Below the pieces are notes generated by a model. That model searched no databases. It was not told where the DNA came from and saw only the letters and a list, made by a program, of their open reading frames with translations. This document shows, piece after piece, positions 926 to 2,355 of a stretch of DNA of 64,000 bases (position 1 is the stretch's first letter; each line of letters opens with the position of its first letter). The DNA lies in the NCBI GenBank assembly GCA_951406725.2, contig OX597825.1:39556001-39620000 (forward strand). The letters run 5' to 3'. Both the position numbers and the translations under genes were made by a program. This stretch comes from Octopus vulgaris (Eukaryota).

Positions 926-957
<32 letters not shown>

Positions 958-1186
958 ATAGAAATATTAAGATTACTAAGTCTCTCTAAAGGAGATTACG
1001 GCAGCGTTACTGGATATTAATAGTTATTGCCATACTAATATGGCAGTCTATAAATATAAGACTAAAGCTGTCGCTAATTAGCTCCAAGAGGCCGTCGCCT
1101 CTAGCTAGCTATATGACACACGAACCTGCATCCATTACAACCTTCGAACAGGGGAGGTCAGATGCTTAACCTTGCTAGTCAGACAT

Positions 1187-1227
1187 CTGTAGACATGTTT
1201 CAGGGTTGTTGCCCTTTATCAATGCAG
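1187..1227 (-). ncRNA. Minimal type-I hammerhead ribozyme motif, U3-A8 core variant (family A copy 1)
   Basis: Minus strand: ctgca-TTGATAA-aggg caacaa ccct-GAAAC AT GTC-tacag; one stem I mismatch. Confidence 0.75.
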
Positions 1228-1547
1228 CGTAGTCAGACCTGCAGGTGTCGCTACTGACCGTCTGTTCGAAGATTTTATGTTCCTACTTACAGTGGAATAC
1301 ATCCACTTGTTTTCAATAAAAGAAATATTAAAATTAATAAGTCTCTCTAAAGGAGATTACGGCAGCGTTACTGGATATTAATAGTTATCGCCATACTAAT
1401 ATGGCAGTGTATAAATATAAGACTAAGGCTGTCGCCGATTAGCTCCAAGAGGCCATCGCCTCTAGCTAGCTATGTGACATACGTACCTGCGTCTATTACA
1501 ACCTTCGAACAAGGGAGGTCAGTCGCTTCACCTTGCTAGTGAGACAT

Positions 1548-1588
1548 CTGCAGACATGTTTCAGGGTTGTTGCACTTTATCAATGCAG
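1548..1588 (-). ncRNA. Hammerhead motif (family A copy 2)
   Basis: Minus strand: ctgca-TTGATAA-agtg caacaa ccct-GAAAC AT GTC-tgcag; one stem II mismatch. Confidence 0.75.
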
Positions 1589-2123
1589 CGTAGTCAGACA
1601 CGCAGGTGTCGCTACTGATCGTCTGTTCCAAAATTTTATTTACCTAGTAATTGTGGAATACATCCACTTGTTTTCAATAATAGAAATATTAAAATAACTA
1701 AGTCTCTCGAAAGGAGATTACGGCAGCGTTACTGGATATTAATAGTTATCGCCATACTAATGTGGCAGTCTATAAATAGAAGACTAAAGCTGTTGCCTTT
1801 AGCTAACTATATGACACACGAACCTGCGTCCATTACAACCTTCGAATAGGGGAGGTCAGCCGCTTCACCTTGCTAGTCAAACATCTGCAGACATGTTTCA
1901 GTGTTGTTGCTCTTTATCTTATATTTAGTCTTATAATTATAGACTGCCATATTAGTATGGCGATAACTATTAATATCCAGTAACGCTGCCGTAATCTCCT
2001 TTAGAGAGACTTAGTAATTTTAATATTTCTATTATTGAAAACAAGTGGATGTATTCCAATGTAACTAGGTAAATAAAATCTTCGAACAGACGATCAGTAG
2101 CGACACCTGCGGGTCTGACTACG

Positions 2124-2164
2124 CTGCATTGATACAGGGCAACAACCCTGAAACATGTCTGCAG
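2124..2164 (+). ncRNA. Hammerhead motif (family A inverted copy, A9C mutation)
   Basis: ctgca-TTGATAC-aggg caacaa ccct-GAAAC AT GTC-tgcag. Confidence 0.65.
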
Positions 2165-2355
2165 ATATCTGACTAGCAAGGTGAAGCGGCTGACCTCCCT
2201 TGTTCGAAGGTTGTAATGGACGCATGTTCGTGTGTCATATAGCTAGCTAGTGGTGATGGACTCTTGGAGCTAATCAGCGACAGCTTTAGTCTTATAGTTA
2301 TAGACTTCCATATTAGTATGGCGATAAATATTAATATATATATATATATATATAT

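Follow-up and report, generated by a model that had tools for sequence, protein, structure and literature searches.

Metazoan retrozymes were defined in work that found circles in coral, mussel and axolotl and named Penelope-like elements (PLEs) as candidate mobilisers (available text of PMC7229834), and a 2026 preprint (10.64898/2026.07.22.740005, available part) ties retrozymes to pLTRs by phylogeny and records in vitro cleavage in one of nine retrozyme dimers. In the available text of both sources, Penelope mobilisation of animal retrozymes is proposed, not demonstrated. Insertions of PLEs are described as carrying an inverted truncated copy and a 30-40-bp tail on one end, with a bias towards microsatellites (available parts of PMC8557442 and PMC3846280). 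The U3-A8 covariation of the hammerhead core occurs naturally and is active in vitro (PMC3088659, available part), and it has been found in the hammerheads of the Schistosoma Cercyon PLE (PMC4209133, available part). Within the text available from the sources returned, a literature search for U3-A8 hammerheads was matched by PMC4209133 alone, and a search on octopus and hammerhead ribozymes returned no description of a family such as the one reported below.

The window, by which is meant the whole 64-kb (64,000-nt) stretch of Octopus vulgaris DNA analysed here, consists of AT-rich, microsatellite-rich eukaryotic DNA. At positions 957-2337 (locus 1) stands a decayed insertion of family A, a repeat of 361 bases that is present in many copies and encodes no protein. 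The insertion is laid out as follows.

912-956, no strand: (TA)n microsatellite, left target flank
957-1317, minus strand: family A unit 1, with the long (tailed) 3' terminus at 957
1318-1678, minus strand: family A unit 2
1679-1918, minus strand: family A partial unit 3, with a 24-bp deletion, 5'-truncated within the hammerhead core
1919-1923, no strand: head-to-head inversion junction of 5 bp
1924-2337, plus strand: inverted arm of 1.15 units, unit junction crossed at 2033

The DNA anatomy, termini and junctions of the array and the spread of its family are matters of direct observation; on balance, we consider it probable that the array belongs to the non-LTR retrozymes, as a non-autonomous member that lost the ORF of a Penelope-like element and was mobilised in trans by a Penelope RT-endonuclease (RT-EN). 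TRF returned a period of 361 with 2.7 copies over 955-1918, the hammerhead cores at 1222 and 1583 lie 361 apart and units 1 and 2 align without gaps at 91.3% identity, which bears out the 361-bp period given in a preliminary description of this DNA. The fold-back and the lack of coding capacity reported there are equally plain: the inverted arm at 1924-2337 has ~92% identity, and the longest ATG-ORF measures 8 aa on the hammerhead strand as against 21 aa on its complement. The inverted arm ends at the short terminus (unit position ~58) against (TA)n. Family A copies, with a unit GC of 0.43, are 91-94% alike within and between loci (pairs with more than 160 compared columns), and each holds 6-9% differences, mostly private, with two minority states common to unit 2 and the inverted arm. 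As regards Schistosoma-type SINEs, a simple screen found no A or B box (simple pattern) and no tRNA in the repeat.

Every unit that spans the core carries one type I hammerhead motif, as had been claimed, and all five family A hammerhead copies have ACAUGU as a palindromic stem III. Four of the motifs are listed here.

1187-1227, minus strand: type I hammerhead of unit 1, U3-A8 core, cut site after C1192
1548-1588, minus strand: hammerhead of unit 2, cut site after C1553, with the loss of one pair in stem II
2124-2164, plus strand: hammerhead of the inverted arm, A9C core change
42154-42194, minus strand: hammerhead of locus 2, intact but with a GUU site

On the minus strand at locus 1 the layout comprises a 5-bp stem I, UUGAUAA, a 4-bp stem II capped by a 6-nt loop, then GAAA, ACAUGU and C17, where the core UUGAUAA is a U3-A8 covariant of C3-G8 with a closing A10.1-U11.1 pair. 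The covariant core and its closing pair went unremarked in the preliminary description, and Rfam is blank for them, with no hammerhead at gathering score, nor at E<=10 on 900-2400. The description of the ribozyme as minimal has to be withdrawn, as helix II has 4 bp and no bulge follows A9, which corresponds to the canonical type in the available text of PMC4209133; helix III is palindromic with 1-2 bp, and helix I has 5 bp as against 6 bp in the definition given there. Each copy had been said to hold a mismatch, which is true of locus 1, where four hammerheads are damaged, but not of the locus 2 copy, which differs only by GUU, permitted by the NUH rule, in a comparison spanning the core and proximal stems. 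The unit 1 hammerhead has a private C-A mismatch in stem I at a site where the pairing base makes up 99.9% of the depth in sequencing run X1, and the locus 2 hammerhead has no partner hammerhead at that locus. With 15 block-shuffled windows used as the chance control, the strict scan gave four matches in the window, two of them the palindromic family A motifs, as compared with 0-3 strict matches per shuffle and a single palindromic one overall.

Family A resembles the metazoan non-LTR retrozymes of coral, mussel (350-390 bp) and axolotl (Rtz_331/353), as far as the available text on them extends, in having a tandem unit within 150-450 bp and no ORF, together with one type I hammerhead per unit, GC below 50%, strong self-pairing and a long target duplication, and its weak palindromic helix III is like that of axolotl HHR_Amex1. 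Going by the main-text descriptions of these retrozymes, the U3-A8 core with A10.1-U11.1 and the lack of an Rfam match set family A apart; it further differs in an explicit PLE tail and inversion anatomy, and it is known here from DNA alone. The core covariation is common to family A and the min-HHR of the Schistosoma Cercyon PLE, whereas the min-HHRs described in the available part of PMC4209133 have a 7-8-bp helix II with a bulged base after A9 and are mostly single, those of family A having 4 bp, no bulge and a tandem arrangement.

The second locus reported earlier was recovered as a related two-armed insertion at 41,980-42,525, with the following parts.

41970-41983, plus strand: direct repeat of 14 bp flanking the insertion, left copy
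41980-42307, minus strand: arm with the short terminus, unit junction crossed by 22 nt
42304-42522, plus strand: inverted arm with the long terminus, starting ~12 nt downstream of the cut site
42523-42536, plus strand: right copy of the 14-bp flanking direct repeat

The direct repeat at locus 2, which is partly GATA repeat, is likely a target-site duplication, its 14 bp (partly microsatellite) comparing with a threshold of >4 bp; at locus 1 a target duplication is unreadable. Both family A loci are head-to-head, with one end at ~57-58 of the unit and the other 52-57 nt beyond, and their termini abut (TA)n or (GATA)n. A tailed end paired with a short one was seen in all three head-to-head insertions (the two family A loci and the family B insertion at 60848-61400, see below), the tail of the family A and B insertions measuring ~52-57 nt as against the 30-40 described for PLEs. 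The 3' ends of family A lie ~209 nt (short) or ~261-266 nt (tailed) past the core, away from the cut site, and its termini recur elsewhere as loose ends, at 1321-1322 in run X20 and at 1375 against TA in run X14. The unit junction is crossed four times, in three of the four family A arms, with the next unit entered at the identical point on each occasion, and it is also bridged in the contigs of a second organism (run X3, records 28 and 29). Since all four crossings lead into another unit, the template would have been several ORF-less tandem units, or a circle. No ORF for RT and GIY-YIG was found between the repeats at either family A locus. Taken together, this insertion anatomy suggests mobilisation by a Penelope-type enzyme.

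Two further relatives of family A, families B and D, were located in the window.

58840-59176, plus strand: family B copy 1, with its hammerhead core at 58878
60848-61400, no strand: family B head-to-head insertion, 8-bp flanking repeat (by eye)
60848-61198, minus strand: long-terminus arm of this insertion
61253-61400, plus strand: short-terminus arm of this insertion
5950-6058, plus strand: fragment D, third relative, a 3' piece whose short terminus abuts (TA)n

Families A and B are homologous, with an alignment score of 102 against 36+/-5 in 300 shuffles, and the kinship of fragment D is given by an E value of 3.8e-11. The hammerhead of family B is placed as in A and has two defects common to its copies; that of copy 1, with its two defects, has C3-G8 and the loop CAAAUA, which we take to be the archetypal Schistosoma loop 2. 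In nine sequences taken from A, B and D, pairing holds in 89.5% of 162 cells as compared with 32-44% in slid controls, both sides change in six of the 18 pairs, and RNAalifold recovered three of those helices, which provides modest evidence that structure is conserved across three related lineages, with few independent events. A hairpin stands ~10-15 nt before the short end in A, B and D alike. We do not regard an ATG that lies 186-189 nt beyond the core as a genuine start, since it belongs to the hairpin, is replaced by GTG in D and is followed in A by a stop after 8 codons. In the family B tail (59064 onward), a hydrophobic frame of ~40 codons runs from the hairpin ATG and may be due to AT-rich chance; a similar hydrophobic extension precedes the usual start of L046, one of the Neptune loci described below.

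Family B copy 1 lies antisense, as a clean insertion between two adjacent homologue residues, in a decayed RT gene, and as it stands alone inside this old gene it moved without an ORF. The gene and a motif upstream of it are as follows.

57715-60200, minus strand: decayed Neptune-like RT and GIY-YIG ORF with many stops and frameshifts
60498-60624, minus strand: hammerhead-like motif upstream of this ORF, with a long helix II and a GUA site

The upstream motif is of a type unlike families A and B and its proximal stem I is broken. Homologues of the decayed gene have RT, CNC-CPL linker and GIY-YIG-type motifs. Pfam left the four RT fragments of the window unrecognised and matched RVT_1 weakly in one of eight long homologues, so that the Neptune label, which is our assumption, rests on alignment motifs matched to descriptions of the clade. 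With the decayed RT as query, a word-index protein search gave no match, and no Neptune relatives were found in viral contigs. Family B was tried and rejected as the pLTR of this local ORF, as copy 1 lies inside the ORF, no family B copy follows it and the hammerhead upstream is of another type. Downstream of the ORF, an RT-thumb-like fragment and a degenerate hammerhead-like motif were seen by eye at 57560-57650 and ~57310 (minus strand), and the 3' pLTR expected past the ORF was not evident by eye.

For comparison, 77 intact Neptune-like loci, out of 498 relatives present in metagenomes, were analysed. A descriptor of our own identified 28 hammerheads in 26 of the 77 loci. Each of them is C3-G8 and lies on the ORF strand, and most have GUA sites and longer helices. 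The distance from the hammerhead core to the ORF start was 179-246 nt in eight of nine usable cases and 392 in the other, that from the stop to the core was 82-244 nt (20 cases), and two complete spacers, directly measured, were 361 and 272 nt long; left out of these distances were the starts of L045 and L046 (non-PLE ORF; upstream Met), the 439-nt value of L040 and spacers of 685 and 314. With 95 nt preceding the core and 266 nt following it, the family A unit corresponds in size to a closed Neptune spacer. Family A and the Neptune pLTRs are also alike in having a sense-strand hammerhead ~200 nt before the pLTR end, a non-coding spacer of similar size, a tail on one end, head-to-head inversion and microsatellite targets; in contrast to them, family A has no RT-EN ORF between repeats and a different hammerhead geometry. 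No sequence similarity of A or B to any of the 77 loci was found. Because of this and of the differing hammerheads, a Neptune origin is argued from size and position only; by way of these two features, family A likely arose when a Penelope-like element lost its ORF. In two of the metagenome contigs (L032 and L060), an entire Neptune-like element occurs twice, head to tail, with a period of 2427 and 2405, respectively, and 99% identity; these dimers may be real tandems or the assembly of a circular graph.

Part of the locus 1 stretch was found in 20 rows among 24 listed sequencing runs, from four organisms, and 3004, 1790, 217 and 35 contigs matched one family A unit in four of the 24 runs. None of the listed runs is recorded as RNA, and contigs alone, those of two runs presumed to be RNA included, carry no information on expression, strand, ends or circles. 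The run contigs were compared against a single permuted unit, so that joints which go back in the unit reflect the permutation alone, and low depth at 1231-1282, where unit 1 has private differences and indels, was set aside. Among the core variants listed for the four runs, none reached at least 5%, one contig excepted; the loop CAAAUA accounts for about half of the family A depth and G10.1 for 5-27%. Summed depth in X1 and X3, which is not copy number, rose 5-15-fold from the hammerhead to the tail, and no step in depth was seen at the cut site in these two runs; the gradient, a weak hint of 5' truncation, is as compatible with linear copies that share a fixed 3' end and are truncated at the 5' end as it is with circles, and ordinary pLTRs would explain it equally well. 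None of the 24 loose ends listed is a conserved ORF-like one. A subfamily with a different segment of ~30 nt at unit positions ~91-120 (window 1408-1437) was observed in 31 and 47 contigs of X1 and 38 of X3. Family A patterns gave no matches in the metagenome and viral contigs.

The rod below the hammerhead that had been described was reproduced by fold prediction, with z = -5.9 for the linear and -4.4 for the circular monomer against +0.6 to -2.2 in four control windows; the opposite strand likewise folds well (z = -6.4), so the fold gives no strand identification. For the majority dimer, a double-hammerhead fold was predicted at -182.2 kcal/mol, compared with an MFE of -182.6 and with -168.0 for two monomer hammerheads, and for the genomic dimer of units 2 and 1 it was predicted at 10 kcal/mol above the MFE. 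In a whole-locus read-through transcript the unit 2 hammerhead is predicted to be fully paired with the inverted arm. Locus 1 had been put forward as a source of circular RNA, which is unlikely given its four damaged hammerheads and the predicted burial of the unit 2 hammerhead in the fold-back; the locus is probably inactive or dead. As ligation of a monomer recreates the genomic tandem sequence exactly, reads across the GUC junction cannot by themselves prove circles.

The termini, inversions and tail of family A, all PLE-like, would also be expected if its copies were 5'-truncated ends of an autonomous Penelope-like element, the master having several tandem pLTRs and no independent element or circle being involved; the fall in depth from tail to hammerhead weakly agrees with this, and the U3-A8 core of the Schistosoma Cercyon hammerheads is also in its favour. 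As the public contigs are short, copies linked to an ORF may exist elsewhere. This explanation deserves weight and is nevertheless unlikely in our judgement, as the locus 1 arm spans 2.7 units without an ORF, the period is constant at two loci, the 24 listed loose ends include no conserved ORF-like one and the hammerhead geometry is canonical and retrozyme-like, unlike that of the local Neptune-like element or most of the 28 Neptune hammerheads. Local expansion of a solo pLTR in DNA, by unequal crossover or slippage and from no multimeric RNA template, would account for the minority states common to unit 2 and the inverted arm, and an array model is proposed in the available part of the 2026 preprint (10.64898/2026.07.22.740005). 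We regard it as improbable here, since the inverted arm, locus 2 and the contigs of another organism all show the identical junction, and since neighbouring units (91.3%) are no closer than copies across loci (91-94%). A 100-N assembly gap (259-358) lies near locus 1, and misassembly of tandem and inverted PLE structures is known (PMC8557442, available part). However, with the mostly private differences of 6-9% in each copy, the flanking repeat at locus 2 and the bridging of the junction in independent runs, an assembly artefact of the repeat is very hard to credit.

The retrozyme and Penelope reading of the preliminary description, which we also prefer, gains support from the insertion anatomy, the ORF-less junctions, the predicted double-hammerhead fold and the spacer size; the minimal class and the role of this locus as a source are the parts that fell away. 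Under the retrozyme reading, intact tandem arrays elsewhere would be transcribed on the hammerhead strand, and adjacent hammerheads would form a double hammerhead by pairing through their ACAUGU segments. Cutting after GUC would then set free 361-nt monomers, which could be ligated into circles. A Penelope RT-EN would nick AT-rich or (TA)n DNA and prime downstream of the core, at a distance of ~209 nt for the short end or ~261-266 nt for the tailed end, the priming site falling just beyond the conserved hairpin and not at the ribozyme cut. Copying of a multimer or circle would yield arms longer than one unit, and a second priming event would give the head-to-head inverted arm. More tentatively, and as a possibility about which we are doubtful, A, B and D may be ORF-deleted Penelope circles, their loci recording circle-templated, target-primed reverse transcription of a 361-nt hammerhead-generated circRNA by a hairpin-directed RT-EN that primes at a distance of 210-270 nt from the ribozyme cut, and U3-A8 retrozymes may be abundant; if true, these would constitute a class hidden from Rfam and from CUGAnGA descriptors.

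As the class of retrozymes is already known, the additions made here, a variant core and a clear Penelope signature on ORF-less units, are modest. The ORF-less units bear this insertion signature at ends distant from the ribozyme cut, and family A provides a small, well-defined substrate, with a hairpin as candidate signal, for the study of trans-mobilisation and circle templating. With the U3-A8 core, such elements can be undercounted by standard searches.

Several other repeats were observed in the window. At 3381-3791, a 410-bp imperfect palindrome (92%) has a hammerhead-like motif in each arm and is probably another PLE-type head-to-head insertion. Both motifs show a C3-A8 mismatch in the core, CUGAUAA, together with an extended helix II region and the palindromic ACAUAUGU-C. 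A 93-bp tandem repeat at 3786-4083 (3.2 copies, with TA tracts between them) has a solo inverted relative at 54566-54684; it contains a hairpin followed by GAAAC, without a full hammerhead core, and may be a PLE 3' end with half a core. A 335-bp inverted repeat pair (86%) at 21483-22326 adjoins TA tracts and showed no hammerhead in the scans. The segments at 18906-19661, 29050-31168, 35112-37377 and 62978-63253 are presumably decayed mariner-like transposases and non-LTR RT fragments, going by their motifs. An unrelated U3-A8 motif at 48512-48548 (plus strand), upstream of a TA/GATA tract, has a 5-bp helix II, the ACAUGU palindrome, a GUU site and a poor stem I.
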